A stretch of DNA of 59,778 nucleotides from a virus (IMGVR_UViG_3300027296_000001:1-59778), one strand, 5' to 3'. Shown: positions 187 through 59,778, counted from the stretch's first letter. Numbers and translations: made by a program. Notes: generated from the sequence alone by a model not told the origin.

Positions 187-1374
187 TTAGGCCTTGAGAA
201 CCGCAGGCCCAGTTCCTGAATTTGATCCTGTTTCGGTGCGGCCGAGCATGACGCGCTGCTTCTCCTCGGGCGTCAGATAGGCGAGGTACATCTCGGTTGT
301 TTTGACCGATGTGTGGCCCAGTCGCTGCTGTAAAACATAGATGGATCGGCCGCTTTTAAGCCACAGCACGGCGTGCAAATGCCGGAGATCGTGGAACGGG
401 AAGGGGCGGAAATCCTGTTCCTGTTTTTGGGCCTGTTGGGCGACGCGATCGACGAGGCGATCGAAGTTGAGCTGGGAATAGCGCTCTGCGGGCTGCTGGC
501 CGCGCCTGGAGCGTTTCTTTGCCTCCCGGCGGTGCCAGAACAGGGCCTTGGTTTCGATCGACGCCGGCAGCTTCGACAGGACGTCCCAGCCATAGTCCTC
601 GCCGCCATCGACGAGATCGATGACGCGTAGCTTGTTGCGCTTGCCGATAAGCGTGAGCTGCTTCCGGGGGCGGTCCAGGTGGGCCCGATCAGCCTTCTTG
701 ATCTCGTCGTAGCGGGCGCCGGTCTTGACGGCGGCGGTGATGAAGGCACCCTTGAGGCCCGGCGCCGCATCAATCACCATCTGGACGTGGCGGATGTCCG
801 GCAGCACGATCGGATCGCGGCGCTCCTTCAGGCGCGATTTGCGCCGGCCGCCGGGCTTGAGCCATGCGATGACGGGATTGTCGTCGCGCCATCCTTCGTC
901 GATGCAGAAATCCATGACCGAGGAGAGTGCGGTCAGATCCCGTTTGATGGTCGCGATGGTGGCGATGATGGGGTGCTTCTTACCGGCCGGCACCATGGCC
1001 GTTTCGCGACGCCATTTCACGATGTCGCCGATCAGGTCCCGGGTGACCTCGTCGAGATAGAGTCCTTCGAGCTTGGGCGCCAGCACGCCCAGCGAGCTCA
1101 TGTAGCGGGTGAAGGTCTTGCCGCTGACCTGCTCGACCTGGAAGGCGGCCCATGCGTCCATAGCCTCGGCGAGGGTGCGGCGGGCGTCGCCGTAGCGGAA
1201 GATCGCTACCTGGCGCTCACGCTCCGCGCGGCGGCGATCTTTCGCCACTTCTGGATCGTCTGTGCGTAATGACCACTTGACGTCGTTCCCGCCGACCTGA
1301 ATCCGGCCGTAGAGGGTATCGCCGCGCCAGAAACAACCTTTTGGAGCTTTCCGGCCTCGCTTGCCCTTTGGCAT
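187..1374 (-). CDS. int: Tyrosine integrase
   Basis: 395 aa. C-terminal motifs are HDLRHLHAV and LGHTSVKTTEMYLAY. It has a basic N-terminal arm-type region and lies next to attL. Confidence 0.95.
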   Translation of the reverse strand: MPKGKRGRKAPKGCFWRGDTLYGRIQVGGNDVKWSLRTDDPEVAKDRRRAERERQVAIFRYGDARRTLAEAMDAWAAFQVEQVSGKTFTRYMSSLGVLAPKLEGLYLDEVTRDLIGDIVKWRRETAMVPAGKKHPIIATIATIKRDLTALSSVMDFCIDEGWRDDNPVIAWLKPGGRRKSRLKERRDPIVLPDIRHVQMVIDAAPGLKGAFITAAVKTGARYDEIKKADRAHLDRPRKQLTLIGKRNKLRVIDLVDGGEDYGWDVLSKLPASIETKALFWHRREAKKRSRRGQQPAERYSQLNFDRLVDRVAQQAQKQEQDFRPFPFHDLRHLHAVLWLKSGRSIYVLQQRLGHTSVKTTEMYLAYLTPEEKQRVMLGRTETGSNSGTGPAVLKA

Positions 1375-5989: not shown

Positions 5990-6610
5990 TCAACGCGGCA
6001 CGAGGTTTTTGACCCTGGCGGCCCACTCGATGGCAACGTCGAGGATCGGCGGCTCAGTCTGAGATAGCAGATGAAATAGGCCGCGAGCCTTGGATTTCTG
6101 GATCTTCTTGATGAGGATACGGCCGTCATCGAGCCCCACGACGCAGAGCTCGTTGATCAGGTCAGGTGTGACAGGGCGGCGAACATCATCGTAAAAGACG
6201 AGCCATCGGTCGAAGAATGTGCCGAGGCTCTCGCCCCGGATCTCGACCGCGACGGTTGAAGCCGTGGAGCCGGCTGGGGCTGAAACCTCTTCGATCGGCG
6301 CGTCGTGTGGAAAGAAGTGCGTCGCAGCGCCGGCCCCGACATATCCGACGAGCGGAACGAGGCGTTCGGAAGCAGCGGCGGCCGGCGCAGCCTTGCCACG
6401 GTGCACGCCTTTGCCCGTCAGGAGCCATTCCAGCGAGACTCCGAACTTGCGGGCGTAGAGCTCGGCATTGGCCTTTTTGAAGCCGCGTGAGCCGTTTTCG
6501 TGGCCGAGATAAGTGGGCTGCTTGACCCCGAGCGCCTCCGCGGCCGCGGCGGCAGTGGGGTAGCCTGCATCTTTGCGGGCGGCGGCCAGTCGCTGGTGCA
6601 TTTCTTTCAT
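5990..6610 (-). CDS. cI-like repressor (XRE HTH plus S24 LexA-like autopeptidase)
   Basis: N-terminal HTH AAEALGVKQPTYLGHENG. Ala-Gly site in VGAGAA. GESL (Ser) and LIKKI (Lys) match S24 catalytic positions. Divergent from cro. Confidence 0.9.
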   Translation of the reverse strand: MKEMHQRLAAARKDAGYPTAAAAAEALGVKQPTYLGHENGSRGFKKANAELYARKFGVSLEWLLTGKGVHRGKAAPAAAASERLVPLVGYVGAGAATHFFPHDAPIEEVSAPAGSTASTVAVEIRGESLGTFFDRWLVFYDDVRRPVTPDLINELCVVGLDDGRILIKKIQKSKARGLFHLLSQTEPPILDVAIEWAARVKNLVPR

Positions 6611-6612
6611 TC

Positions 6613-6671
6613 ATGCAATTTGCATAGGAAAATTATGCAAGAGGCATTGACCGTTATTATGCAAAAGGCAT
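6613..6671. promoter_or_regulatory. cI-cro intergenic operators (OR analogue)
   Basis: ATGCAATTTGCAT (6613-6625, a perfect palindrome), ATGCAAGAGGCAT (6635-6647) and ATGCAAAAGGCAT (6659-6671). TTGACC and TATTAT elements lie between them. Confidence 0.65.
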
Positions 6672-6680
6672 AGTCGAGCC

Positions 6681-6887
6681 ATGGATGCGCAACTGATTCG
6701 CAAAGCTCGGGAACTCACCGGCGAAAGCCAGGCGACCTTTGGCGCGCGCTTCGGCGTCGACCAGAGCACCGTGCACCGCTGGGAAATCGGCGGGCCGCCC
6801 ACCCGGGGCGCCGCGAAGATCATGGTGACCCGCGAGGTCGAGGCGATCCTCGCTGCGCATGCGCCCAAAGATGGGGCATCGTCATGA
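6681..6887 (+). CDS. Cro-like HTH regulator
   Basis: 68 aa. RELTGESQATFGARFGVDQSTVHRWE is an XRE-type HTH. Divergent from the repressor. Confidence 0.8.
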   Translation: MDAQLIRKARELTGESQATFGARFGVDQSTVHRWEIGGPPTRGAAKIMVTREVEAILAAHAPKDGASS

Positions 6888-7089
6888 CCGCCTCCAGCAC
6901 CACAATCGTTGCCACCACCACAGCTCATGCGGTCGCACAGCTTCGCGGCGAGACTTGCGCACAGCGTCCTGGACCCGGTCTTCCGTTTTCGTCTGAACAG
7001 TTTGCTTCTGTGTCATTTGTTGCGTCCGGAGTTGCGTCATGTCGATTGCCGAATCGTGCACGTTGCCGGTTGCGAGGCCTAGGAGAACG

Positions 7090-7109
7090 CTTCGAACAAG
7101 TGTTCGAAG
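7090..7109. promoter_or_regulatory. Perfect 9-bp inverted repeat CTTCGAACA-AG-TGTTCGAAG
   Basis: Read directly. It lies 20 nt upstream of the TTG 7129 start candidate. Confidence 0.4.
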
Positions 7110-7128
7110 AGACCCGCAGGCCGAACGA

Positions 7129-7311
7129 TTGTCGAAATTCGGCCGCGTATGTCTCACGCTTTGGCCTGACCAGAAGGCGGACGTCATCCTGGCGCAGCGT
7201 ATCGGCTGCTCGGAGCGCGCGGCGCAATTCTACATCACCGGCGACCGCGAGCCTTCCTACGAAGCGCTCATGGTCGTGCTCGACGAACTACGGCCCCGCA
7301 AGCGGGCGTGA
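7129..7311 (+). CDS. Small HTH protein (Cro/CII-like); start uncertain
   Basis: ILAQRIGCSERAAQFYITGDREPSYEAL resembles an HTH. Third-position GC is high only from about 7129 onward (TTG). The ATG at 7039 is the alternative start. Confidence 0.5.
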   Translation: MSKFGRVCLTLWPDQKADVILAQRIGCSERAAQFYITGDREPSYEALMVVLDELRPRKRA

Positions 7312-7468
7312 GGTATCCCAAGCGAAAGCAACCGAAGGCAAAGCGGCGAGCACGGGCAATGCCATGATGGGGCCCGCGTCGAAGGGGTTGCGAGTAGGCG
7401 AGCCGGCGCGGACCGGAAGGCTGAGTTGGCCGGCCCAAGGGCGAACCTCAAACGTCAGCGAACGTGGC

Positions 7469-7781
7469 GTGACAGCTGGAGAGACAGCACGGAATTCACG
7501 GGCATCATCGCGCGAAAAGCGGAGACCAGACGCGAGCGGTGAGCTTCCTGGTACGGATCCGGAAACGTCATCTTCGCCGGGCCGTAAAATGGGCGGCGTA
7601 TACCGCAATCACGACGTGACGGCCGGGAGAGACCGGCAACCGAGCTTTGGCAGTGCCAATTCTTTTTCTGCCATCGGAAGCGCGAGAGGCACTAGCGCCA
7701 TGCTCCATCCCGGGGTCGTAGATGGGTCAACCGCATCAACCTTGCAGGCCGGGACAGCGGTGACAGCCGGAGAGACGGCAC
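7469..7781 (+). repeat. Three copies of GTGAC-R-stem-GAGAGA-stem (7469-7490, 7616-7640, 7760-7781)
   Basis: Stems are GCTG/CAGC, GCCGG/CCGGC and GCCG/CGGC. The loop and the GTGAC leader are invariant. Spacing is 147 and 144 nt. Confidence 0.7.
7647..7667 (+). terminator. Weak intrinsic-terminator-like hairpin plus T-run
   Basis: TTGGC-AGT-GCCAA followed by TTCTTTTT. The stem is short, so the call is tentative. Confidence 0.3.
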
Positions 7782-8053
7782 CTGTACTATCGCTTCGCGG
7801 CGGCGTGGGAAATCCGACAGACACGCAGGCTATGACGCGGCGCGCCGAGCCGCTGAGCTGCCTAGGTACGGCGGCGGGGTTGACGGTCCCGCCCGCGAGC
7901 AATTCGAAATTCGGTTCGGGCGACGGCCCTGGCATCCATCAGCCCGGGTCAATGACACGGGGCGGCGATCTACTCGCGACGGCTCCGTCGGGAAGGGCGC
8001 GTCAACGCGCTATGTGCCCCGCCGTCGGCCCGGAGCTTTGCGGGGAGGGCGGC

Positions 8054-8560
8054 ATGAGCGAAACCGACGGCGATATCAAGTTCGATCCCGTCAACATGGG
8101 GCAGGCGCTTGGCGTTCTCGCTGATGTGGTCAGTAGCTACGTCAGCGCGACGCACACTGCGGCCCTGGCCGACGACCGTAAGAAGTCCGCGCAGGTCAAC
8201 CTGGCCCTCTTCCTGCACAGCCTCTGCATGCGCTCGAAATACAAGGCCGAGACGGCCGATATCCTGGACATTATCAGCGCCCAGTTGCGGATGCAGGCGA
8301 ATGAGGAGGGCGCTGATCCCTCGACCACGGATCTCTTGAAGCCGACCGGCAATGACGGCGTCGTCAATGCCGAAATCTGCTTCAACTCGCTGCTGCTGAT
8401 GGGCGATGTCAACGTCACCCAAGAGCAGGTGGCGACCTGGTCGCAGGACCAGATGGACCGCGCCTATGACTGGGCGATGCGGGTTCACCTCCACGCCAGC
8501 GACAATCCGGGCGTCTTCGTGCCGGATCGCCCTGACTTTCTTCCGGGGAGGGTAGCGTGA
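8054..8560 (+). CDS. Hypothetical early protein
   Basis: SD GGGGAGGG precedes ATG 8054. Codon bias is gene-like from here on. Confidence 0.65.
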   Translation: MSETDGDIKFDPVNMGQALGVLADVVSSYVSATHTAALADDRKKSAQVNLALFLHSLCMRSKYKAETADILDIISAQLRMQANEEGADPSTTDLLKPTGNDGVVNAEICFNSLLLMGDVNVTQEQVATWSQDQMDRAYDWAMRVHLHASDNPGVFVPDRPDFLPGRVA

Positions 8561-8886
8561 GAACGCGCGACAAACTTGCTGCCGAGCTGCGCAAGGTTGG
8601 GTCGATGTCGGCGCAACACGGCGCCCTGTACGAGGCGTTCGCCAAGCGCGCCGAGACGGGCGAGTTCGACGACTACGCCGACACCTACGTCTGCCCGATT
8701 ACGCAGCTGCATCACGAACTGAGCTGTGCCGGCTTCACCAAGTTTGCCGCGCGCGTGGCCGCTGGCGAATTCGACGCGACCAAAGAAGAGAGTGACGAGT
8801 GGATGCGCAGTCCGGCAGGGCAAGAGGCCGCCAGGCGCCTATCGCCGGAGATGCGCAAGGTGCTCGGCATGGAAGTGATGAATTGA
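8557..8886 (+). CDS. Hypothetical protein
   Basis: GTG start in a GTGA overlap with the upstream stop. Confidence 0.55.
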   Translation: MRTRDKLAAELRKVGSMSAQHGALYEAFAKRAETGEFDDYADTYVCPITQLHHELSCAGFTKFAARVAAGEFDATKEESDEWMRSPAGQEAARRLSPEMRKVLGMEVMN

Positions 8887-8900
8887 GGGGGCTGGTCTCA

Positions 8901-9158
8901 GTGGCTGACATCAAGAATGTGTTGCTACGGGCGCAAAGCGAAATTCTGACGCTGCGTCATCGCAACGAAGTGCTGCAGGCCAAGGTCGACACGATGGACC
9001 TGTTCGCGCTCGTGCTGCGGACACAGCCCGCATACCAATCGGTCGGCATGGGCGAGGACGTCGCCTGGCTCATCGAAAAGGAAGTCGCAGAAATCAACCA
9101 CCGTGAAGCGGTGCCAGATCCGAAACCCGTTGAGGCCGTTCCACGCTCCGATAGCTGA
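8901..9158 (+). CDS. Hypothetical coiled-coil protein
   Basis: GTG 8901 with SD GAGGGGG upstream. Confidence 0.5.
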   Translation: MADIKNVLLRAQSEILTLRHRNEVLQAKVDTMDLFALVLRTQPAYQSVGMGEDVAWLIEKEVAEINHREAVPDPKPVEAVPRSDS

Positions 9159-9280
9159 TCCAAGCCTCGCACCCCGTTCTCAGTAAGCGTCACCAGCGTA
9201 TCCCGACATCACCTGCAGCTGCACCCGTTCGGTCATCTCCGGGCGTGAGCTTCTGCGTCCTTGCAACAGGAGGCAATCCG

Positions 9281-9520
9281 ATGCTTGCCGACCAACCGAT
9301 GCTGCGCGACGCGGTCACCGCGTTCCTGGTCTACATCATGATCGGAGCGCTGGTCTGGATGTTCGTCTATTGCCACGGCTGGCTTCGCCGCGTGTACTCG
9401 ACTGAGCTGACCGGATCGGGCGAGGTGCTCGATTTCATCGGCAATGCCCTGATCACCCTGGTGCTGATCGCCGGCTGGCCCGCGATGCTGATCGCGCTCC
9501 GCAAGGGCAAGCTGCAATGA
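9281..9520 (+). CDS. Small membrane protein
   Basis: SD AGGAGG precedes ATG 9281. Two hydrophobic segments. Confidence 0.55.
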   Translation: MLADQPMLRDAVTAFLVYIMIGALVWMFVYCHGWLRRVYSTELTGSGEVLDFIGNALITLVLIAGWPAMLIALRKGKLQ

Positions 9521-10065
9521 TCCGGATCATCGACATCCTGATGGTGCTGCTGCCCATCGTTCTGATCGCGATCGCGCTGCTGTTGGCGTGCGCGCTACGG
9601 GTCACCCGCTGGCGGAGGACCGTCGATCGACGAGCTGGCTTCGGCCGGGCCGCGGGTGACCCGTTTCAATATCCGTTCGGCGAGATGCCGCTCGTTCACA
9701 GCGAGCGCGTCTCGTTCGAGTACGGTCGCGGCGGGCGCATGCGCGACGCCAGCGACTTCCGCGCATGGGGCATCCCGCGATTTCATTCGGGCGGCTTCGT
9801 CGGATCGGAGCCAGGACCACTCGTAGGCGAACGCTGCGAGTCCTTTCCGATGACGCCGCGCCAGTACGAACGACTGGTTTCCGCGGGTGCCCTCCGGCGG
9901 AACGAGAGCGGCGGCCGTCCTGCATCCCTGTCGGGGACGGCCGTCGTTCTCACCTTTCCGCGCATGCTGAAGGCGGAGGAAGTCGATCAGATCAAAGCAG
10001 CGCGGCAGCATCAGATCGAGGAGATCGCGCGCGTGTTCGGCGGCTCCATGCAGAGGGATGCGTGA
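9517..10065 (+). CDS. Membrane-anchored hypothetical protein
   Basis: N-terminal hydrophobic helix. ATGA overlap with the upstream gene. Confidence 0.55.
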   Translation: MIRIIDILMVLLPIVLIAIALLLACALRVTRWRRTVDRRAGFGRAAGDPFQYPFGEMPLVHSERVSFEYGRGGRMRDASDFRAWGIPRFHSGGFVGSEPGPLVGERCESFPMTPRQYERLVSAGALRRNESGGRPASLSGTAVVLTFPRMLKAEEVDQIKAARQHQIEEIARVFGGSMQRDA

Positions 10066-10908: not shown

Positions 10909-11093
10909 TGTCGCTTGTCGAGGATCTCCAGAAACAGCAGCAAGAGGTCGATCGCCGGCTCGCCAAGGCGCTCGAGGATGTAGGCCGTAGCGCGCTCGGG
11001 ATGCCGTCAGCCGCCGACACCTTTCGCGCCATGCTCGATCGCGCGGGCCTCGCGCTGATGCTGAAGGCTAAACCGGAGGAGCCCCAGCGATGA
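10908..11093 (+). CDS. Hypothetical protein
   Basis: Coupled to the upstream gene, 61 aa. Confidence 0.5.
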   Translation: MSLVEDLQKQQQEVDRRLAKALEDVGRSALGMPSAADTFRAMLDRAGLALMLKAKPEEPQR

Positions 11094-11698
11094 GTAATAA
11101 GTCACGAAAGCCGCGAAAGCAGCGCTGGCAGAGCCTCAAGGGTATGACCGATGAGCAGCGGTGCAACCACGTTAGAGCGCTGTCTCGTGACAGGTACGCG
11201 CGTCAAGCCGCGATCCGGCGGGCAAGCCGCGCTGCCGATCCTTTGCATCTAATCGGCACGGTCGATCTCGCATACATGGCCGGCCTCATTGATGGGGAGG
11301 GGTCGATCTACTGCCTTGCTCACGGCGGTGGTAAGACGTGCTACCCGACGATCACCGTCGCGATGACCGATTTTGGCGTGATCGAATGGCTGGCCAGTAA
11401 ATGGCGGGTTAAGACCAGCAAGATGCCGCGCCGGGTCGCGACATATAAGCCCGCGGTCTTCGTGCGGCTGTCTGGAGAGCGAGCGCGACTGCTGTGCGAG
11501 CTCCTGCTGCCCTATCTCAAGGTGAAACGTGCTCAAGCGGCGCTTGTCCAAGAGTTCCCGTTAGACGCGCGTTCTGGCCCCGGAATCAAGGTCGGCGCGT
11601 CCGAGATCAATCGACGCCGTTTTGCGCTTCGAGATAAGATCAATGGCCTCAACCACGCTCCGAGAAATGCCAGTTATCGGCGTGGAGCGGCGGCATGA
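11090..11698 (+). CDS. LAGLIDADG-family homing endonuclease (single motif)
   Basis: LAYMAGLIDGEGSI motif. Basic N-terminus. ATGA-coupled on both sides. Confidence 0.8.
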   Translation: MSNKSRKPRKQRWQSLKGMTDEQRCNHVRALSRDRYARQAAIRRASRAADPLHLIGTVDLAYMAGLIDGEGSIYCLAHGGGKTCYPTITVAMTDFGVIEWLASKWRVKTSKMPRRVATYKPAVFVRLSGERARLLCELLLPYLKVKRAQAALVQEFPLDARSGPGIKVGASEINRRRFALRDKINGLNHAPRNASYRRGAAA

Positions 11699-36301: not shown

Positions 36302-36772
36302 ATGAACACGATTGTTCTCCAGCGCGACGTCGGCTCGCTCGGCGCGATGAAGCGCCTCACGGCGGCCGCCTCCGCGACCGCAGCCTCGACCGGCGATTCC
36401 ACCACCACCACGGGCGCGACCATCGACCGTATGGGCTTCGGCGCCGGTTCTATGCCGAATACGCTGGCCGCCGCGGTCGCGTGGGAAGCGACGCTGGCCA
36501 CCGGCAAGACCTTGTCGATCGGCTATGCCTGCCAGGACTCGGCCGACGGCAACAACTGGTCGGATTACCAGACCGGTACCTATGCCGCGGTCGCGACCGG
36601 TTCGACGGCCGCCTCGGCCCTGGCCGGTGAGTTCGAGGTCTCGGTCAACCTGACCTCTGCGCGCCGCTATGTGCGGTTCAACTTCGCCGAGGATCTCTCG
36701 GCGACCCAGACCGACACTTCCGCCGCCCGCGCTGTGGGCTTCTTTGCCGGCTTCGATCGCCTGCCGGCCTGA
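36302..36772 (+). CDS. Hypothetical structural protein, Ser/Thr/Ala-rich
   Basis: 156 aa. Lies between the capsid and glycosyltransferase genes. Confidence 0.55.
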   Translation: MNTIVLQRDVGSLGAMKRLTAAASATAASTGDSTTTTGATIDRMGFGAGSMPNTLAAAVAWEATLATGKTLSIGYACQDSADGNNWSDYQTGTYAAVATGSTAASALAGEFEVSVNLTSARRYVRFNFAEDLSATQTDTSAARAVGFFAGFDRLPA

Positions 36773-37569
36773 TGAGCGCGACCTCTCAACCGGGCGGGCC
36801 GGCCACGGCCGTCTCGCCCGAGATCGCGGCGCGCCTCGAGCGTGCGCGTCAGCGCTCGGTCATGATCTGCACGCCGGTGGCCCGCAACCCGGTCTGGCAG
36901 TATACGGCATCGCTGGCCTCGACGCTGCTGTTCCTCAAGGAGCAGGGCATTCGCTGCACCTTCCAGTTCGTCGTCGGCGGCTCCGTCATTCACAAGGCCC
37001 GCAACGAACTCTGCGCTCACTTCCTGATGAGCGACTATACCGATCTGCTGTTCGTCGATGACGATATGGAATGGTCTCCGAACAGCGTGCTGCGCGTGCT
37101 GGCTTCCGACAAGCCTGTCATCGGCGCGGTGGGGCGCATGCGCGTCCAGAAGCCGAATTCCGATCCGGCCGTGTGGTGCTGGCGGCCGCTCCATCAGGCC
37201 AGGGCGCTCAACCAGGATGAGATGGGCGCGATTGAGGTGAAGGGCGTTGGCGCTGCCTTTCTGCTGATCAATCGCGGCGTGCTGTTCGAGATGGCGAAGC
37301 AGCGCCCGAGCTGGAAGCGCGCTGGCGCGCATGACTGGCCGCAGGAGCTGCGCGATCATTATTTCGAGTTCTTCCGGACCGGCGAGGAGGGCTCCGACGC
37401 CGAGATCGGGGAGGACTACCTCTTCTGCAATCGGTGGCGCGCGATGGGCGGTTCGGTCTGGGTCGACCCGACCATCGCGCTCGGCCACGTGGGTTCATTC
37501 AATTATCGCGGCTCGATCGAGGAGCTGCTCGCAGCGGCTCCGGAGGAGGGAAACAATGTCCATTCGTGA
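36772..37569 (+). CDS. GT-A-fold glycosyltransferase-like protein
   Basis: VMICTP...KARNEL...LLFVDDDMEW...GVGAAFLLI...GEDYLFCNRW..G..VWVDP....GHVG. Confidence 0.7.
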   Translation: MSATSQPGGPATAVSPEIAARLERARQRSVMICTPVARNPVWQYTASLASTLLFLKEQGIRCTFQFVVGGSVIHKARNELCAHFLMSDYTDLLFVDDDMEWSPNSVLRVLASDKPVIGAVGRMRVQKPNSDPAVWCWRPLHQARALNQDEMGAIEVKGVGAAFLLINRGVLFEMAKQRPSWKRAGAHDWPQELRDHYFEFFRTGEEGSDAEIGEDYLFCNRWRAMGGSVWVDPTIALGHVGSFNYRGSIEELLAAAPEEGNNVHS

Positions 37570-37867
37570 TCTGCTCGAGGCCAAGGCCCATGCGCTCGCC
37601 GAAGAGATGGCGACCGCGCCGACTGTGCTGCATCTGCAGGCGGCCGCCCATCATCTGACCGTCGAGCTGCGGCGCGAGCTCGACACGTTGATTGCAGACT
37701 TTCGCCCCGCCGGCGCCGAAGTGAAGCGCGAGACGGCTCCGGCGCCTGCCGAGGCGCCGGCGGCAGAGGCTGCGCAAAGCGACGCCGCGGCGCCGCCGAC
37801 CGCTGCCATCGAGCAGGCCGGGCCCGCTATCGTTGAACCCGCTGCCGCCGCGGAGGTCGCGTCGTGA
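37556..37867 (+). CDS. Hypothetical protein, Ala/Pro-rich tail
   Basis: SD GGAGGAGGG precedes ATG 37556. Confidence 0.5.
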   Translation: MSIRDLLEAKAHALAEEMATAPTVLHLQAAAHHLTVELRRELDTLIADFRPAGAEVKRETAPAPAEAPAAEAAQSDAAAPPTAAIEQAGPAIVEPAAAAEVAS

Positions 37868-38091
37868 TCGGCGTCCGTTTCATCCGCGCTGTGCGTCCCT
37901 ACGGGGCGGGCGACATAGCGATGTTGCCGGATGATGCCGCCCAGGCTGTTATCGACGCCGGCGATGCCGAGCTCGCCGAGCTGCCCAACGCCCCTCACGC
38001 CCATGAGGCCGGTTATCGCCCTGCCGTCACCAAGCCGCTTCAGCCGGCTTCCGCCGGCCGCCAGGGCTATCAGACCAAGAAGGGACGCTGA
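37864..38091 (+). CDS. Hypothetical protein
   Basis: GTG start, GTGA-coupled. Confidence 0.45.
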   Translation: MIGVRFIRAVRPYGAGDIAMLPDDAAQAVIDAGDAELAELPNAPHAHEAGYRPAVTKPLQPASAGRQGYQTKKGR

Positions 38092-38094
38092 GCC

Positions 38095-38358
38095 ATGGCC
38101 GATCCGTACAAGAACGCTGGCGGCGATCTGCAGAGCTTCGGCCGTCGAGGCAAGGTGATCACGCCTGGGGCCAGTGATCTCACCGACGTGGCGAAGGGAA
38201 TTGTTGTGCTTGCAGCCGGTGATGCGACAGTCATTCCCGTCGACAATGCCGATGCCGGCACGCTCACCTTCACGGGTCTGTCGGCTGGCCAAATCATTCC
38301 CTTCCAGGTGCGCCGCGTGACCGCGGCGACCGCAACGCTTGCCACGATCGAGGGCTGA
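38095..38358 (+). CDS. Head-spike-base-like protein (resembles the RcGTA rcc01079 family)
   Basis: 87 aa with ...TLTFTGLSAGQIIPFQVRRVTAATATLATIEG. The family assignment is recalled from memory, not searched. Confidence 0.5.
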   Translation: MADPYKNAGGDLQSFGRRGKVITPGASDLTDVAKGIVVLAAGDATVIPVDNADAGTLTFTGLSAGQIIPFQVRRVTAATATLATIEG

Positions 38359-38363
38359 GACCC

Positions 38364-39647
38364 GTGCCGTCGCTAGGGTTGAAACTTTCACTCCCAGCCA
38401 GAGGCCTTGGGTTAGTGAACAACGTGCCGTCGTGGGTGCTGCGCTCCAGCGGCATCGCGGCGGCTGCCGATCTGGATTTCCAGAACGGTCAATATTACGG
38501 CGGCCAGCTCGCTTCGTTGCTGACATGCTCGCGGGCTTCTACAGGTTACGCGAAGAACAGCGGCGGTCTGCTTATCTCATTCGCGAACGACGCTCTTCGC
38601 ATTACCGATCTTGGGCTCCTCATGGAGGAGAGCAGAACCAACGCGCTGGCGTGGAGCAATAATCCGCCGAATTGGAGTATTCCGCAGGTGGGCTGTTCCG
38701 CCGCCCAGAACGTAGTCGGACCGACAGGTACGGCGAACGAAGCGTGGACCATCACTCAGACCGGGGCGAACGCTTCGGACAGTCGATATCAGAACAACGC
38801 TGCGGTAACGAGCAGTTCGAACACCTACAGGATTTCATGCTTCGTCAAGAAGCAAGCCTCAGTGGCTGCATATCCCGCCTTAAAGGCTTTGTTCACGGGT
38901 GGGACGCAAGTTGATACAGGCATCGTCATTGATGTCGTCAATGGTGCGGCGACTGCACTGAACGGATCAGCCACCAACATTTCGGTTGAAGATTACGGAA
39001 GCTTCTGGCGGGCGTCGTTTTCTGTGGCCGATAATGCGACTGGTAACACGCTGCTCGCATATTCATTTTATCCGGCCTGGAACGCTAGCTACAGCATCAC
39101 AAAAAACACGGTTAGCGGAGCAGCGAACGTCTTTGCGTTCGGGCAGCGGGAGCTTGGAGCGTTTACAACCTCTTACATCCCGACGACTTCATCGAGCGCG
39201 TCAAGGTCAGCTGATGTAATTAATGTCGCTGGCTCGCTGGCTTCTTTGCTCGCGAATTCTTCGAGCGGCTCGGCTTATGGCTCAGCCGCTGGGTTGCCTA
39301 CGACCAGAACCGGCAACGCCGCGATCCTATCATCGTCGCCCGCGCTACCGTTGTTCATCAATGCGACCGGAACGGGCAAAGCAGCAACGTTTAACGGCAC
39401 CAATTCCATCACGCTCGCCAACGCGAACACTTGGAGCGCGGGTGCAAAGGCAGTGCTCGGCTGGGATGGGTCTGGCCGGTCGATAGTCTCTACCGGCAAT
39501 TCGCTGTTGAGTGATGCCAACACAATCGGCTTGGGCGCCAGCGTTTCTCTGGCTTCTGGCGGCAATGCGTTGAACGGATATCTGCGGAGACTGGCCGTCT
39601 GGTCGTCTCGCCTCTCTGACACAAACCTAACCGCGCTAGCAGCGTAA
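38364..39647 (+). CDS. Head-spike fibre / LamG-jelly-roll-like protein
   Basis: 427 aa, Ser/Asn/Thr-rich, ending GYLRRLAVWSSRLSDTNLTALAA. GC is lower than the flanks. Confidence 0.5.
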   Translation: MPSLGLKLSLPARGLGLVNNVPSWVLRSSGIAAAADLDFQNGQYYGGQLASLLTCSRASTGYAKNSGGLLISFANDALRITDLGLLMEESRTNALAWSNNPPNWSIPQVGCSAAQNVVGPTGTANEAWTITQTGANASDSRYQNNAAVTSSSNTYRISCFVKKQASVAAYPALKALFTGGTQVDTGIVIDVVNGAATALNGSATNISVEDYGSFWRASFSVADNATGNTLLAYSFYPAWNASYSITKNTVSGAANVFAFGQRELGAFTTSYIPTTSSSASRSADVINVAGSLASLLANSSSGSAYGSAAGLPTTRTGNAAILSSSPALPLFINATGTGKAATFNGTNSITLANANTWSAGAKAVLGWDGSGRSIVSTGNSLLSDANTIGLGASVSLASGGNALNGYLRRLAVWSSRLSDTNLTALAA

Positions 39648-39657
39648 AGGACGAACC

Positions 39658-40017
39658 ATGAAGCTTCATTTGATGCAATTCGACACTGAGCAGGCTGCAA
39701 TCGACGACGGCTCGGTCGGCGCGTTCCATGCGCCTTACCAGAACGAATTTTTCCCCGGTGGATGGGACCAGAGCCGCACTTTCCCGAATACGTCGGTCTT
39801 TATCACTCAGGCACTCCAAGCCGGGTTCTGGATCATCATCGCGCTCGATGACAGCAACACGACGCTGGCGCAGCACTCCGGTTGCCGTCTCGCGTGGGAC
39901 AACGAAAGCGCCGTGATCCTCGGCGGCACCTATACCGGCAACGATATGTCAGCGTTGTTCGTCTCGCCCGTGCCGGCCGGCGCGTACAATCCTTGGAACG
40001 GCGCTGCGCCGGAGTAG
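39658..40017 (+). CDS. Hypothetical protein
   Basis: 119 aa, lower GC. Confidence 0.5.
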   Translation: MKLHLMQFDTEQAAIDDGSVGAFHAPYQNEFFPGGWDQSRTFPNTSVFITQALQAGFWIIIALDDSNTTLAQHSGCRLAWDNESAVILGGTYTGNDMSALFVSPVPAGAYNPWNGAAPE

Positions 40018-40066
40018 TCCACTCCCTCAGGGTTGGCGGCCGCTCCCTGGACGCTCCGCGACATCA

Positions 40067-40210
40067 TCATCGCTGGCGGTTGACGACAAGGTACCAACCG
40101 ATCGCCGCGACCGCTGCGACGGCCAAGGTTGGGATGAGCGGCTCTCCCTCCACGACCGCGAGAGTCGCGCCGGTTGCGATCAAAATCGCGACGGCCCAGA
40201 AGTCATCCAT
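40067..40210 (-). CDS. 47-aa hydrophobic membrane peptide
   Basis: MDDFWAVAILIATGATLAVVEGEPLIPTLAVAAVAAIGWYLVVNRQR. It overlaps the stop of the upstream RHH gene by 8 nt. Confidence 0.45.
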   Translation of the reverse strand: MDDFWAVAILIATGATLAVVEGEPLIPTLAVAAVAAIGWYLVVNRQR

Positions 40211-40388
40211 GGTTCTTGGCTGCCTTCTCTTGTCGATCGAGCTCGTGCTCGACGGCGTCACGGATGAACTGAGCCATGCCGCGATCGCCGACCAGCGCGC
40301 GTATGCGTTCGCGGAGATCTTCGGTGAGGCGCACGTTGGTAGGTTGAGCGCCGAGGGAAGGGCGGCCGACAGTCCTCTTCTTCGCCAT
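40203..40388 (-). CDS. Ribbon-helix-helix (CopG-like) DNA-binding protein
   Basis: MAKKRTVGRPSLGAQPTNVRLTEDLRERIRALVGDRGMAQFIRDAVEHEL. Confidence 0.65.
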   Translation of the reverse strand: MAKKRTVGRPSLGAQPTNVRLTEDLRERIRALVGDRGMAQFIRDAVEHELDRQEKAAKNHG

Positions 40389-40453
40389 GGTTGAGCAGCT
40401 CCATAAAATTGCAGCGAATCTGGCAAGCATCTATCTACCACGGTTAAGCAATA

Positions 40454-40495
40454 ACGGCGCCGTTTATTGCGGTGATTTACGGCGCCGTTTATTGC
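40454..40495. repeat. Two perfect 17-bp direct repeats ACGGCGCCGTTTATTGC (40454-40470, 40479-40495)
   Basis: Read directly. The first is part of the near-palindrome GCAATAACGGCGCCGTTTATTGC. They lie in the divergent RHH/recombinase promoter region. Confidence 0.8.
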
Positions 40496-40502
40496 TTTGC
40501 GG

Positions 40503-41531
40503 ATGAAGCTGCGAAAGCTCATCCGCCGATATCAGAATGACCCGCTGTCGAGCTGGCACAAGCTGCGCTACGCTACCCGGCAGAACCATCGCAACCTTCT
40601 GCGCCAGATCGATCGCCGCTACGGCCATGTCCGGCTGAAGAAGATCAAGGGCCGCACGCTGCTGAAATGGCATGCGCAGTGGCTCGACGGTACCAAGTTC
40701 TCGGCGGCCCGCGCCTTCATCAAGAAGATCCGCGTTCTGTTCGGCTACGGGCTCACCATCCTCGAGGACAGGGAGTGTGCGCGTATCCGGCAGGTGATGA
40801 CGGCGATGCGCTTTCCCGGCTCGCCCAGGCGCAAGCAGCGCATTACCTTGGAGCAAGCAAGCGCGATCATCCGTACGGCACATCGCGTGCGCGACGGCGC
40901 GGTGGCCTTGGCGCAGGCCTTCCAGTTTGAGCTGATGCTCCGGCAGAAGGATGTGATCGGCGAATGGATGCCGATCGACGAGGAGGGTGAGGGCTACGTT
41001 GTCGACGGTGACGAGACCTGGTCGCGCGGCCTGCTCTGGGAGGAGATCGACGACGACCTGGTGCTGCGTCATCGCACCAGCAAGACCGGCAAGATCGCCG
41101 TTTTCGACCTGAAGCTCGCCCCGCTGGTCCTGGCCGAGCTGAGGCGCAGGAACCGGCCGGAGTGCGGCCCGATCATCGTCTCGCCGGCGACAGGCCAGCC
41201 CTATCGGGCGCATCAATTCCGCCGCGCCTGGCGCGAGATCGCGCGCGATGCCGGCGTTCCCGACGACGTCTTCAACATGGACAGCCGCGCCGGCGCCATC
41301 AGCGAGGCCTTTGATGCGGAGGCGGATCCGGACTTCATCCGCACGGCCGCCACCCACAGCGAGCTCGCCACCACGCAAGGCTACAACCGCGGTGATGAGC
41401 TCGCCCGATCGCGCAAGGTGGCGCGAGCACGGATCCGGAAACGGCCGGCGACAACGCAGCGCCGCACAACAAGGGTAGGGGCCCGACGTCCCGCACAACG
41501 ATCGCGCGGCGCCCTCGCGGCTGCCGCATGA
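40503..41531 (+). CDS. Tyrosine-recombinase-like protein (second integrase-family gene)
   Basis: LRQKD (Arg I), SKTGK, FNMDSRAG (Arg II, but the usual His is replaced) and ATHSELATTQGYNR (His and Tyr). Confidence 0.7.
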   Translation: MKLRKLIRRYQNDPLSSWHKLRYATRQNHRNLLRQIDRRYGHVRLKKIKGRTLLKWHAQWLDGTKFSAARAFIKKIRVLFGYGLTILEDRECARIRQVMTAMRFPGSPRRKQRITLEQASAIIRTAHRVRDGAVALAQAFQFELMLRQKDVIGEWMPIDEEGEGYVVDGDETWSRGLLWEEIDDDLVLRHRTSKTGKIAVFDLKLAPLVLAELRRRNRPECGPIIVSPATGQPYRAHQFRRAWREIARDAGVPDDVFNMDSRAGAISEAFDAEADPDFIRTAATHSELATTQGYNRGDELARSRKVARARIRKRPATTQRRTTRVGARRPAQRSRGALAAAA

Positions 41532-41546
41532 CAATGACGAGGCACG

Positions 41547-42200
41547 ATGCCTTACAAGATTATCACGACGGTGCTGGCGTCGGCGAAGAGCTACGAATTC
41601 ACCGATCTCGCAACGGTGAAGGCCGAGCTCGAGCTGACCGACGGCAAGTCGGACGCGCGGCTGAAGCGCTATATCAAGGCCGCCTCGGCCGCGGCCGCGC
41701 AATATTGCAACCGCCGCGGCTTTCAGATCGAGACCGTCCAGGACGCGATCTTTCCGCAAAAGGATCCGCATCTGCCCGGCTCGTTTGAGACGCTGCAGCT
41801 GTCGAGCTGGCCGATCGGCGCGATCGTGTCGCTCACCGAGAATGGCAACACGCTGGTCGTCGATATCGACTTCAGCGTCGACGCCGATGTCGGCCAACTG
41901 ATCCGGCTCGACATGGCCGGCAACCGCTGCCTCTGGAACGCACTGCCGAAGGTCGCGCAGTTTACGGCTGGTTTCAGTGGCAGGGATGGCTTTGGTGGGA
42001 TTCCCGCGGACATTGAGGACGCCGTCATCAAGATGGTGACACGGCGTTACCTGGCGCCGAAGGACCCGAACCTGATGCAGCAGACCGTCCCCGGGGTGCT
42101 CGAGCAGCGCTGGTGGATCGCGAGCAACAGCGAGACCGGCAACATGTCGCCTGACATTACCGACGTTCTCGACAATTACCGCGTGCCTGTGGTCGCCTGA
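41547..42200 (+). CDS. gp6-like head-tail connector protein
   Basis: DLATVKAELELTDGKSDARLKRYIKAASAAAAQYCNR pattern. Confidence 0.7.
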   Translation: MPYKIITTVLASAKSYEFTDLATVKAELELTDGKSDARLKRYIKAASAAAAQYCNRRGFQIETVQDAIFPQKDPHLPGSFETLQLSSWPIGAIVSLTENGNTLVVDIDFSVDADVGQLIRLDMAGNRCLWNALPKVAQFTAGFSGRDGFGGIPADIEDAVIKMVTRRYLAPKDPNLMQQTVPGVLEQRWWIASNSETGNMSPDITDVLDNYRVPVVA

Positions 42201-42208
42201 AGGAGCTG

Positions 42209-42613
42209 ATGATGGATAATGCCGGCACCTACGATCTCGCCGTCCTGGACTCCAGCGCCTTTCCGGCGAGCGGCATCCTCTCTGCGATCACGAGCCTCGA
42301 TGGCATGTCGTCGGTCTCGCTCGAGGCCGTGTTCAAGCAGGGCTCGGGCGGCGCGACCTTGTCGGCGATCGTGATGACGAGTTTCGACGGCGGCCAGTCC
42401 TGGCGCCACATCGCCCGCTTCGATTTCACGACGTCATCGGCGACCAAGCTTGCCAACATCCAGGCGAGCGCCGCCAAGGCAGTGACGGCCTATGCCGATC
42501 TCGCCGCTGAAGGCGTCAATGACGGCATGCTGGGCGATCAGCTCGCGGTCAAGATCCTGACCAACGGCAGCTACAGCAACGCCTCGCTCTCGATCCGCGC
42601 CGCTGTCAGGTGA
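42209..42613 (+). CDS. Hypothetical structural protein
   Basis: 134-aa ORF. Confidence 0.5.
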   Translation: MMDNAGTYDLAVLDSSAFPASGILSAITSLDGMSSVSLEAVFKQGSGGATLSAIVMTSFDGGQSWRHIARFDFTTSSATKLANIQASAAKAVTAYADLAAEGVNDGMLGDQLAVKILTNGSYSNASLSIRAAVR

Positions 42614-42614
42614 C

Positions 42615-43040
42615 ATGGACCGCCTGACGTTCTTCGTCGCCTCCAACCACCTCAAGGTCAGGCTGCAGCGCCTGGCCCTTCATCCCGATCTTTGGAAATA
42701 CGGACAGGGGACCATCATGACGCCAACCTTCAAGGGTCTTGGCTCGGCGCTCGCCAAGCTGAAGCACGACCTCGATCTGCAGGCCGGGCCGCTGATGGCC
42801 GACATCGAGGACCTCGCCGGTACCGCGCCGCAGCTGTTGAAACAGGCGCAGGCGGAGGTTGCCCGAACCAAGCAGGCCGTCGCGGACATCAAGGACTTCG
42901 TCGACGGCCTCACCGGCAGCAACGGGGCGCCCCCTTTGGAAGACTCCTCGCGTTCGTCCGCAGCTTCGCCGGCTGAGGCGGCAGGCGGTAGCGCAGGCGG
43001 CGAGGCGCGCCTGACGGTCAACGGCGTTCAGGCGGGCTGA
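42615..43040 (+). CDS. Hypothetical structural protein
   Basis: Gene-like third-position GC from 42615 onward. Confidence 0.5.
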   Translation: MDRLTFFVASNHLKVRLQRLALHPDLWKYGQGTIMTPTFKGLGSALAKLKHDLDLQAGPLMADIEDLAGTAPQLLKQAQAEVARTKQAVADIKDFVDGLTGSNGAPPLEDSSRSSAASPAEAAGGSAGGEARLTVNGVQAG

Positions 43041-43435
43041 TGTCCGGCCTTATCGCCGCCCTCGACCAGGCGCTGAAGGTTGGCAAGAGCGAATGGGTCT
43101 GGCTTCGTCGGCGCGTCGGGGAGGGACCGAACCAGACCTTCGTCCAGGTCAAATGCCTGGCGAGTGTCGACGCGATCGATTCCACGCAGAACCCGGCGGG
43201 CATTCGCCTGTCGGAATTCTCGATCATCATGTCGCCGACGCAGATCAATGAAGCGCAGTGGCCTGGTGGCTCGATTCCTGTGCCGCCGCCGTTCGATCTC
43301 GATCCGCGGATTCCCCGCGTGAATGATACCGATGATGTCATCATCCGTGGTCAGCAGCCGCGGGTGATAACCTTCTGTGATCCGAAGATCGTCGGCGGCG
43401 AGCTCGTCCGTCTCAATCTCAAGGTCGTTGCCTAA
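43040..43435 (+). CDS. Putative head-tail joining protein
   Basis: The call rests on position and size only. Confidence 0.45.
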   Translation: MSGLIAALDQALKVGKSEWVWLRRRVGEGPNQTFVQVKCLASVDAIDSTQNPAGIRLSEFSIIMSPTQINEAQWPGGSIPVPPPFDLDPRIPRVNDTDDVIIRGQQPRVITFCDPKIVGGELVRLNLKVVA

Positions 43436-43444
43436 AGGCTATCC

Positions 43445-43858
43445 ATGCTGACCGATCCGACCTCAGCAATCTGGGATGCCGTCAAGGCGCGTCTGCTCAG
43501 CGATCCCGATATCGCGTCGGTCTTTGCTGATCGTGTCTATGACAAGATCCAGAACACGCCGACCTTCCCTTATATTTCATTGGGCGAAGTGCAGGTCCTT
43601 CCCGAACTGGGCGAGGGGACCGACGCCGCGGAAGTGTTTCTGACCCTCAATAGCTGGACCCGTTTCACAGGCTCCGATGCCCTGCGGTCCGGCGGCAAGT
43701 ACGTCATCGCTGCGTTGCACGATGAGGAGCTGCAGATCGAAGGCGGCGCAGTGCTGTCCATCCTGCTCGAGTCGTCTCGCACCATTCCGGATCCGGATGG
43801 GGTCACCAAGCACGGCGTTTACACCTTCCAGATCCTGACGGACGCCAATGTGCTCTGA
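43445..43858 (+). CDS. DUF3168-like tail completion protein
   Basis: AVKARLLSDPDIASVFADRVYD....PYISLGE......AEVFLTLNSW pattern. Confidence 0.6.
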   Translation: MLTDPTSAIWDAVKARLLSDPDIASVFADRVYDKIQNTPTFPYISLGEVQVLPELGEGTDAAEVFLTLNSWTRFTGSDALRSGGKYVIAALHDEELQIEGGAVLSILLESSRTIPDPDGVTKHGVYTFQILTDANVL

Positions 43859-59651: not shown

Positions 59652-59778
59652 ACCGTTCTCGTTCGCCGTCTGTGCCGACTTTGCCGACCCATCGAATTGG
59701 CGGAAAACCCTATAAAACAAGGTAATCTCTGGTGCCGGCTGAGGGGATTGAACCCCCGACCTTCGGTTTACAAAACCG
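59652..59778. repeat. attR copy of a perfect direct repeat of at least 127 bp (cut by the window edge)
   Basis: Identical to 1-127. The true repeat end cannot be seen because the window stops here. Confidence 0.95.
59730..59778 (-). tRNA. tRNA-Thr(UGU), 3' portion only; the gene runs off the right window edge
   Basis: Same T-arm, acceptor, CCA and anticodon-loop sequence as 79-127. It is presumed to be the intact copy, because the left copy is broken. Confidence 0.6.

Follow-up and report, generated by a model that had tools for sequence, protein, structure and literature searches.

The gain of morons by temperate phages, and their swapping of host-range modules, are attributed to rare events of illegitimate or homologous recombination. 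In T4-type phages, small genes are shuffled by PeSL regulatory cassettes, and neither morons nor PeSL cassettes are known to carry a recombinase. Could a phage late operon harbor a dedicated enzyme for such exchange? We analyzed a locus at positions 40,018 to 41,546 of a 59,778-nucleotide viral DNA (IMGVR_UViG_3300027296_000001; "the window" denotes this whole stretch), in which a gene for a tyrosine recombinase without an arm-binding domain stands in the late operon, divergent from a small gene for a ribbon-helix-helix (RHH)-like protein. In our reading, to which we assign a probability of roughly 45%, this is an RHH-repressed, arm-independent recombinase that would form the end of a horizontally mobile cargo island. 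No description of a late-operon arrangement of an RHH protein with an armless recombinase was found in the literature.

What does the locus encode? Its three open reading frames (ORFs), for a hydrophobic peptide of 47 amino acids (aa), the RHH-like protein and the recombinase, were all called as genes in the source assembly. They lie where the original prediction had placed them, as do the 8-nt overlap of the two minus-strand ORFs and the 114-bp region separating RHH and recombinase genes (Table 1), and the identity of these parts is well supported. The recombinase ORF has a third-position GC content of 0.83, like the neighboring late genes, and an in-frame stop codon directly upstream precludes any extension. 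It matches the PHROG family phrog_1, "integrase" (E = 4.6e-13). Pfam family PF00589 scores 39.3 bits on P0101, a longer member of the same clade, and precomputed PF00589 matches exist in many homologs. The second integrase-family gene announced earlier is real, and its catalytic pattern, with Met replacing the first His, is as then stated. No tRNA or tRNA fragment was detected near 40018-41546, and no Rfam family matches the locus or the boundary motif described below.

Among described tyrosine recombinases, lambda Int offers the best structural match to the core-binding and catalytic fold of the window protein, in which the Arg, Lys, Arg, His and Tyr of the active site are present. An AlphaFold2 (AF2) model of the protein (pLDDT 85.2) was compared with the PDB using Foldseek: lambda Int residues 75-356 ranked first (1z19, 1p7d; TM-scores 0.60-0.74), followed by Tn1549 Int, XerA, IntI (2a3v, mid-ranking) and Cre, and the probability was 1.00 for all of these and for XerH, with TM-scores up to 0.74. 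As modeled, the recombinase consists of a core-binding and a catalytic domain and has no arm-binding domain. The N-terminal extension of about 80 aa seen in long members of the clade is absent, and lambda Int is matched only from residue 75 onward. In contrast to lambda Int, the window recombinase has no arm-binding domain, carries Met for the first His and is encoded away from any att site or tRNA gene, in the late operon of a phage that possesses a canonical integrase and attP. In size and two-domain architecture it resembles Cre, XerC/D and IntI, and, as for these enzymes, short core sites without arm sites would be expected; a sequence relationship to Cre, XerC/D or IntI was not detectable, and they rank structurally below lambda Int.

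An alignment of 24 family members shows R147, K194, M259, R262, H285 and Y294 to be invariant, where the equivalence of residues is based on the Pfam alignment range together with invariance in the family. Because M259 is invariant across these members, Met in place of the first His is a family trait and not a lesion. Smyshlyaev et al. (2021; PMC8138268) report that the first His of the RKHRH pentad is less conserved in IntBPP-1, a group described from gamma- and betaproteobacteria, and that the catalytic domain has a beta-strand insertion. By description, the window protein resembles IntBPP-1 and IntTn916 in the replaced first His, in extra strands that the model shows at residues 166-174, and in having Tn1549 Int as a top structural match. 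The window clade differs in being alphaproteobacterial (Rhizobiales), and the DUF3596 arm domain was not found in the long member P0101, for which a Pfam scan returned Phage_integrase only. Conservation of the recombinase ends near codon 312 (about 41440); residues 318-342 (41454-41528) are, according to AF2 and comparison, a variable, disordered, Arg-rich tail that reaches the connector gene.

A search of 5.8 billion protein clusters yielded 841 relatives of the recombinase, mostly unnamed. By its sequence, the protein falls within a clade of Rhizobiales phage integrases whose R-K-M-R-H-Y site is invariant, and this clade comes in two forms. The long form, of about 400 aa, has an extra N-terminal domain, is 35-50% identical to the window protein and is located at the ends of early operons or of contigs in Rhizobiales phages. 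At about 26 of 47 genome loci of this form, a tRNA gene lies on the opposite strand, some 20-160 nt past the protein match, which is the classical layout of a working integrase and a further likeness to the lambda Int type. That full-length members with the same R-K-M-R-H-Y set adjoin tRNA genes argues that this set works, and the catalytic chemistry of the clade is probably functional in these relatives. The long-form homologs (L021-L086, at about 11,020-11,310; labels beginning with L denote loci compared here) target different tRNA genes, Gly-CCC being the commonest, followed by Asn, Phe, Lys, Arg and Leu.

The armless form, which includes the window protein, measures about 320-360 aa, starts with MKLRKLI and occurs mainly in Bradyrhizobium. 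None of the nine armless loci scanned has an adjoining tRNA. The ratio of nonsynonymous to synonymous substitution rates (dN/dS) is 0.05-0.37 in all scorable pairs of armless genes (64/66), and by this measure the subfamily is under purifying selection. The gene is intact in all 16 loci, at 49-89% identity to the window protein and in at least six backbone types, and in 16/16 it is co-oriented with the late genes downstream, its place being invariably within a late operon or at the head of one. It stands directly before the gp6-like connector in the window, L005, L008, L092, L250 and L251, before a lambda-type portal gene in L006 and L282, before the prohead protease in L009, before a head-tail joining gene in L093 and before the terminase genes in L252; L010, L254 and L281 carry it in other accessory positions. 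In most pairs of loci, homology is confined to the recombinase gene and a leader of at most 125 nt, and ends near codon 312. Beyond it, the C-terminal tails are variable and Arg-rich, and run up to the next gene or out of frame over it, the latter over the connector gene in L005 and L008. At two loci, L252 (3601-4832) and L254 (5546-6478), a further, separate recombinase, Xer-like and 309-310 aa long, is encoded a few kb upstream; the one in L252 adjoins an Acb2/Tad1-type anti-defence gene.

Is the recombinase gene an ordinary member of the late operon? A search of IMG/VR with a capsid alignment retrieved four relatives from the head lineage of the window (L285, L288, L290 and L291) that contain neither the 87-aa gene at the left end of the block, nor the fiber-like genes, the RHH gene, the recombinase gene or the boundary motif. 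In L285, L290 and L291, 1-42 nt lie between the end of the 75-aa homolog and the start codon of the connector gene, and the arrangement in L288 was read from its sequence. As these four join the 75-aa gene straight to the connector, 38092-41546 represents an indel of 3,455 bp at an intergenic junction. The late operon is indeed interrupted, as had been proposed. Of the three options then offered, a nested element comes closest, although its extent is wider than 40018-41546, and the alternative proposal of 38364-41546 falls short on the left, where the indel starts 272 bp further upstream.

The unit proper, of about 1.5 kb, occupies the right end of this island in the order boundary motif, RHH gene (minus strand), 114-bp control region and recombinase gene (plus strand), the last of which continues uninterrupted into the connector gene. 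The closest relative, L250, has 74-77% nucleotide identity to the window on both sides of the island and retains in place the 87-aa gene (92% aa identity, higher than for any other protein of the region), the RHH gene (84%) and the recombinase gene (79%). Homology between the two stops at 38374 and resumes at 40215, and L250 has 4.8 kb of other genes in between.

In comparison with L005, only the RHH-recombinase stretch is shared. It is 82.7% identical in nucleotides (dS 0.55), whereas the connector proteins of the two phages are only 26% identical, and the transfer of the unit between backbones is consequently far more recent than the divergence of the backbones themselves. Sequence comparison thus demonstrates both the island status of the block and the horizontal spread of the RHH-recombinase unit. 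Comparable blocks, with the recombinase at the right end, occupy other late-gene junctions in unrelated phage backbones; they contain fiber-like proteins, SGNH esterases, an acyltransferase or a beta-helix protein, and the genes found upstream of the recombinase elsewhere comprise fiber-like genes, SGNH/GDSL esterases, acyltransferase_3, a beta-helix protein and methyltransferases. Individual genes recur as well: the 119-aa gene is common to the window and L254 (73%), where it lies directly upstream of motif and recombinase, and a 164-aa gene is common to L009 and L252 (65%), in each case in unrelated backbones. In L282, two genes, the motif, the RHH gene and the recombinase gene separate a gpW-family gene from the portal gene, and these are adjacent in L252.

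The unit carries its own putative repressor. The 61-aa protein encoded opposite the recombinase scores below the curated cut-offs with both Pfam RHH_1 (18.9 bits versus 20.5; E = 1.5e-3) and NCBIfam YlcI/YnfO_N (23.9 versus 30; E = 3.2e-5). A CopG-family regulator in the PDB matches at E = 0.67. A single-chain, single-sequence AF2 model places helices at 23-33 and 36-59 after an unstructured N-terminus, and its fold search was not significant. In size and in sequence pattern (a GRPxLG N-terminus, then a beta-strand and two helices), the protein is similar to CopG, Arc and Mnt and to YlcI/YnfO of E. coli cryptic prophages. Homologs are found in L250 (84% identical) and L005 (66%), and further in L171, L282 and L281, and in all six loci, the window included, the RHH gene diverges from the recombinase gene.

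The control region between the two genes holds the two perfect 17-bp direct repeats and the near-palindrome that had been noticed before. The repeat ACGGCGCCGTTTATTGC has exactly two matches in the 59.8-kb window even when three mismatches are allowed (0.23 expected), and the identical pair is present in L250. Each of the six RHH loci has two repeat copies built on a palindromic core. Five loci carry them as direct repeats at a spacing of 25-26 bp, with a TTTATTG-like extension behind the core (the spacing in L250, L282, L281 and L005 was read from printed sequences); in L171 they are inverted. The core is CGGCGCCG in the window and L250, where the RHH beta-strand reads TNVRL, CGGCACCG in L282 (TNVRL), CGGTACCG in L281 (TQVRL) and CGATATCG in L005 (TVIRL). 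Since the core changes with the beta-strand, the RHH protein, and not the recombinase, is indicated as the reader of the repeats. The two repeats are likely operators of the RHH protein, as judged from this co-variation, and we infer an autoregulated divergent switch that would hold recombinase expression low. Repeated operators within a divergent promoter region are a likeness to RHH repressors; the present case differs in that the putative operators are asymmetric (palindromic core plus TTTATTG), direct and 25 bp apart, and in that the partner gene encodes a recombinase. Conserved across loci, too, are CCATAAAATT and a TTTACCAT-like element of the control region.

Ten other loci have no RHH gene and a different upstream region. 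A leader of about 190 nt is conserved in L006, L008, L009, L092 and L251, and the leaders of loci without RHH mostly follow the pattern GTTTACC...GTTCTGAATCA...GTTGACC...GCTGATTCCCT-loop-AGGGAAT. Read from the sequence, a hairpin seems to sequester the ribosome-binding site in these five loci and in L093, and the last leader hairpin shows apparent compensatory changes between loci. Such a hairpin would be another way to limit expression of the recombinase.

At its other end, the unit is bordered by the boundary motif, of which the window holds one exact copy, with a degenerate second unit extending to about 40052. In other loci the motif takes the form of an imperfect palindrome of about 25 bp, GTCCACTCCCTT-C-AAGGCAGTGAAC. 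Of 15 loci, 13 have a plus-strand copy in the 600 nt that precede the recombinase gene, compared with 10 of 686 control windows. Motif arrays are found between small minus-strand ORFs, with about nine copies in L008 and two or three each in L005, L006 and L252, and homology breakpoints fall in or beside the motif, for example in the L008 duplication and in the window-L254 and L005-L250 comparisons. The L008 array spans 6600-9860, and its minus-strand ORFs encode 44-102 aa, mostly predicted to be helical; there, a 232-nt cassette is duplicated at 85% identity (6993-7224 and 9618-9849), both ends lying in the motif. We considered the motif as a ribosome-binding site or promoter and rejected this, as its distance to start codons varies from 16 to 125 nt and no consistent -10/-35 geometry is apparent.

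An exact-pattern scan of IMG/VR returned 25 motif matches, of which about 17 look genuine and about 8 look like chance occurrences inside coding sequence; by our rough estimate, some 20 exact matches would be expected by chance in a collection of that size. The genuine copies are typically found directly behind the stop of a large fiber-like ORF and face convergent genes. A longer conserved element, GTCCACTCCCTTCAAGGGACCGGATCGGTAGTGGCTCAGGG, follows the stop of large fiber-like ORFs in L256, L259, L265, L267, L269, L273 and L279, all of them IMG/VR soil phage contigs in which HNH-endonuclease-like genes often converge on it. No Rfam family corresponds to this element.

How might these parts act together? 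We propose that the RHH protein binds the two repeats and thereby keeps its own promoter and that of the recombinase low in the lysogen. The recombinase, made from its own promoter or by late read-through, would perform simple, arm-independent site-specific recombination of the Cre/Xer/IntI type and so insert or exchange the island, or its cargo, between phage genomes. Its most likely DNA partner would be the boundary motif. Since it recurs in unrelated Bradyrhizobium phages, the unit probably helps to move host-surface genes between phages.

Several observations weigh against this proposal. Ordinary mosaicism, by illegitimate recombination and subsequent selection for junctions between genes, could produce equally sharp borders with no contribution from this enzyme. 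The relatives with an empty site are only 40-66% identical at the protein level, and on account of this the junction cannot be mapped to the nucleotide. L250 carries the unit at the same position with a divergence similar to that of the flanking structural genes, a pattern that fits vertical descent within the window's lineage; as far as this comparison goes, the RHH-recombinase module was not inserted recently. The stop codon of the recombinase is closely fitted to the start of the next gene, with an ATGA overlap in L282, as after long residence. The two ends of the unit share no direct or inverted repeats, nor do those of the island, and there is accordingly no attL/attR anatomy. This agrees with the earlier finding that flanking repeats are missing. 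A search for att-like ends, comparing the motif side with the recombinase 3' side in 12-13 loci by exact k-mers and by local alignments with shuffle controls, likewise gave nothing consistent. Together, the missing att-type repeats, the unchanged position in L250 and the fitted 3' junction argue against self-mobility. The motif as a strict partner of the recombinase is weakened by the approximately 17 genuine IMG/VR copies, in whose retrieved flanks five integrase queries detected no tyrosine recombinase; it may act as a terminator or mark a regulatory boundary and at the same time be a hot spot of recombination. Finally, the first His of the pentad is replaced by Met259, PF00589 reaches 19.6 bits on the window protein, below the cut-off of 27.1, NCBIfam and PADLOC have no family for it, and a PDB sequence search gave chance matches only. 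An inversion switch was also considered and rejected, as no significant inverted repeats flank nearby segments and the 17-bp repeats are direct and adjacent.

A more far-reaching version of the proposal, which we regard as doubtful, takes the armless recombinase and the GTCCACTCCC...palindrome as an integron-like capture-and-exchange platform in phage late operons. The enzyme would recombine motif copies and in this way load, swap or duplicate cassettes of host-range and surface-modification genes (for fibers, SGNH esterases, acyltransferases and small proteins). Bradyrhizobium phages that infect together or reside in the same host would exchange these cassettes, and the RHH protein would serve as a safety catch. 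As with IntI, the gene in some loci diverges from small ORFs between which an imperfect palindrome is repeated, and L008, L005, L006 and L252 are array-like. Unlike in integrons, the motif is also found without any recombinase, and an integron cassette array was not found in the window, which contains a single motif copy and two ORFs on the minus strand, the conserved RHH gene among them.

Could the recombinase be a housekeeping enzyme of the phage, of the Cre/loxP or Xer/dif type, acting on a simple site by its gene such as 40448-40470? It would cyclize incoming genomes or resolve replication multimers, and the island would be a moron block that came to lie beside it by chance. The two-domain architecture shared with Cre, Xer and IntI fits this idea, GCAATAA-CGGCGCCG-TTTATTGC resembles two inverted arms around an 8-bp spacer, the assembly of the genome is circular and another contig measures about twice the unit length. 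Yet the second repeat copy has no left arm and the repeats are direct, 10 of 16 loci have an unrelated leader in place of such repeats, and the co-variation of the core with the RHH beta-strand points to the RHH protein as its reader. The phage, moreover, already has a canonical integrase and attP, and its capsid-lineage relatives manage without the gene. We consider this explanation unlikely, and no positive evidence emerged for the dimer-resolution or plasmid-state recombinase of the original prediction.

It is quite unlikely, in our view, that the protein is an integrase-fold DNA-binding factor and not a strand-exchange enzyme. Such a factor might act as a decoy on the core sites of full-length, same-clade integrases encoded by rival phages or as a regulator of downstream late genes, and the loss of the arm-binding domain, the 45-50% identity to tRNA-targeting integrases, the tight and possibly translationally coupled junction with the next late gene and the apparent sequestering of the ribosome-binding site by the leader hairpin of non-RHH loci (read from the sequence) are all compatible with it. 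A pure binder, however, would not be expected to keep six invariant active-site positions, including the Tyr nucleophile, under purifying selection.

Selection also bears on the idea of an inactive relic, in which a full-length integrase fused two phage genomes at a secondary site, was then truncated and has since been hitch-hiking. The gene of full-length relatives has its att site (the tRNA) immediately beyond its 3' end, and armless homology ends at the 3' end as well, the tails being variable read-through. A relic would nonetheless hardly display the dN/dS values given above, remain intact throughout the 16 armless loci and their diverse backbones, begin with the identical N-terminus MKLRKLI... 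in place of a random truncation, or retain conserved and dedicated control elements, and we hold this explanation to be very improbable.

The 47-aa ORF has itself as its only match among the 5.8 billion protein clusters and no match in Pfam, PHROG, NCBIfam or PADLOC. None of the other five RHH-recombinase pairs (L250, L005, L171, L282 and L281) is accompanied by it, and in the first three of these no more than about 30 nt separate the motif from the RHH stop codon. The existence of pairs without the peptide implies that the role of the RHH protein is independent of it. On these comparisons, we take the ORF to be lineage-specific passenger DNA and not a partner of the RHH protein. The remaining reading, in which the RHH protein is the antitoxin or repressor of a toxic membrane peptide (for exclusion or abortive infection) that travels with the recombinase, can draw on the 8-nt overlap of RHH stop and peptide start, which suggests coupling, on two hydrophobic segments in the peptide, on its third-position GC content of about 0.78 (counted by hand) and on its being called a gene in the source database, but it deserves hardly any credence for a peptide that is an orphan, has no PADLOC counterpart and follows RHH in none of the other five pairs.

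With morons and PeSL cassettes, the island shares the placement of accessory genes at late-operon gene boundaries and the spacing of small ORFs by a short, conserved sequence that contains a stem-loop and coincides with module borders. It differs in that the block ends in a conserved recombinase with its own putative repressor. Many Bradyrhizobium phages, whose structural genes are of siphovirus, myovirus or podovirus type, have a recombinase at the edge of a variable block. Should the enzyme drive insertion or exchange of cargo, it would constitute a site-specific route to mosaicism and host-range change in phages of an agriculturally important symbiont, and its active site, with Met for His, would be a new variant among simple, arm-independent recombinases. 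The source names in the protein search are mostly "hypothetical protein", and the clade mostly escapes annotation. For this reason, and with the window protein under the Pfam cut-off, integrase-based finders of prophages and mobile elements may miss the clade.

Table 1. Features of the locus, the surrounding island and the genome (positions counted from the first base of the window).
Feature	Position	Strand	Remarks
Armless tyrosine recombinase	40503-41531	+	342 aa; alternative TTG start at 40497
Catalytic codons R147; K194; M259	40941-40943; 41082-41084; 41277-41279	+	
Catalytic codons R262; H285; Y294	41286-41288; 41355-41357; 41382-41384	+	
RHH-like DNA-binding protein, putative repressor	40203-40388	-	61 aa
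Divergent control region	40389-40502		114 bp
Promoter-like site TCGCCA-16-TAAAAT	40382-40409	+	
Near-palindrome GCAATAACGGCGCCGTTTATTGC	40448-40470		
Candidate operator repeat 1 ACGGCGCCGTTTATTGC	40454-40470	+	within near-palindrome 40448-40470
Candidate operator repeat 2 ACGGCGCCGTTTATTGC	40479-40495	+	25 bp from repeat 1
Boundary motif GTCCACTCCCTCAGGG	40017-40032	+	first G is last base of TAG stop of 119-aa gene
47-aa hydrophobic ORF, orphan	40067-40210	-	overlaps RHH ORF by 8 nt
Accessory island	38092-41546		3,455 bp; exactly between two late genes
75-aa late gene	37864-38091	+	left flank of island
87-aa gene, conserved left end of island	38095-38358	+	phrog_12296 "tail fiber protein", E = 3.4e-7
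Variable island interior	38375-40214		fiber-like gene, 119-aa gene, boundary motif, 47-aa ORF
427-aa fiber-like gene	38364-39647		phrog_5939 "tail protein", E = 1e-27
119-aa gene	39658-40017		ends in TAG overlapping boundary motif
gp6-like head-tail connector	41547-42200	+	right flank of island; Phage_connect_1 27.2 bits; phrog_442 E = 1.1e-22
Terminal overlap	1-127 and 59652-59778		identical; window is circular assembly of 59,651-bp phage genome
Canonical integrase	187-1374	-	Pfam 49.9 bits; adjoins attP
tRNA 3' part	about 80-130 (= 59733-59778)		Rfam tRNA model positions 27-71; beside canonical integrase gene
suhB/mmgR small RNA, Rfam RF00519	28625-28702	+	full-length match, 62.3 bits (gathering score 41)

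The source of the window is a temperate phage of Bradyrhizobium type with a circularly assembled genome of 59.65 kb. Because of the identical 127-nt overlap at its ends, the window is a circular assembly and not an integrated prophage with attL, and the premise of the original prediction, a prophage with int and xis at attL, was mistaken. A second contig with the same recombinase protein measures 119,507 nt, or about two unit lengths. ARAGORN found no complete tRNA at about 80-130, and the tRNA 3' fragment beside the canonical integrase is the tRNA-type attP of the free phage genome. Comparison of the canonical integrase with the second recombinase revealed no sequence relationship. Close DNA relatives of the window were not found among GenBank phages, and the connector protein, used as a probe, retrieved no relatives from GTDB genomes or IMG/VR.

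Downstream of the connector, four tail-proximal genes of the window (42212-43858) are 84-98% identical at the protein level to those of L009 (15669-17084), a strain SEMIA prophage (CP046601) with unrelated head genes. This mosaic junction lies one gene downstream of the connector, and not at the recombinase. From the capsid gene to the island (36302-38091), the genes are common to the empty-site relatives and include one for a glycosyltransferase-like protein of 265 aa (Anp1-like, phrog_1574), which may be a pointer to capsid or surface glycan modification. Elsewhere in the genome, the RF00519 match indicates that the phage carries a host-type alphaproteobacterial regulatory small RNA.

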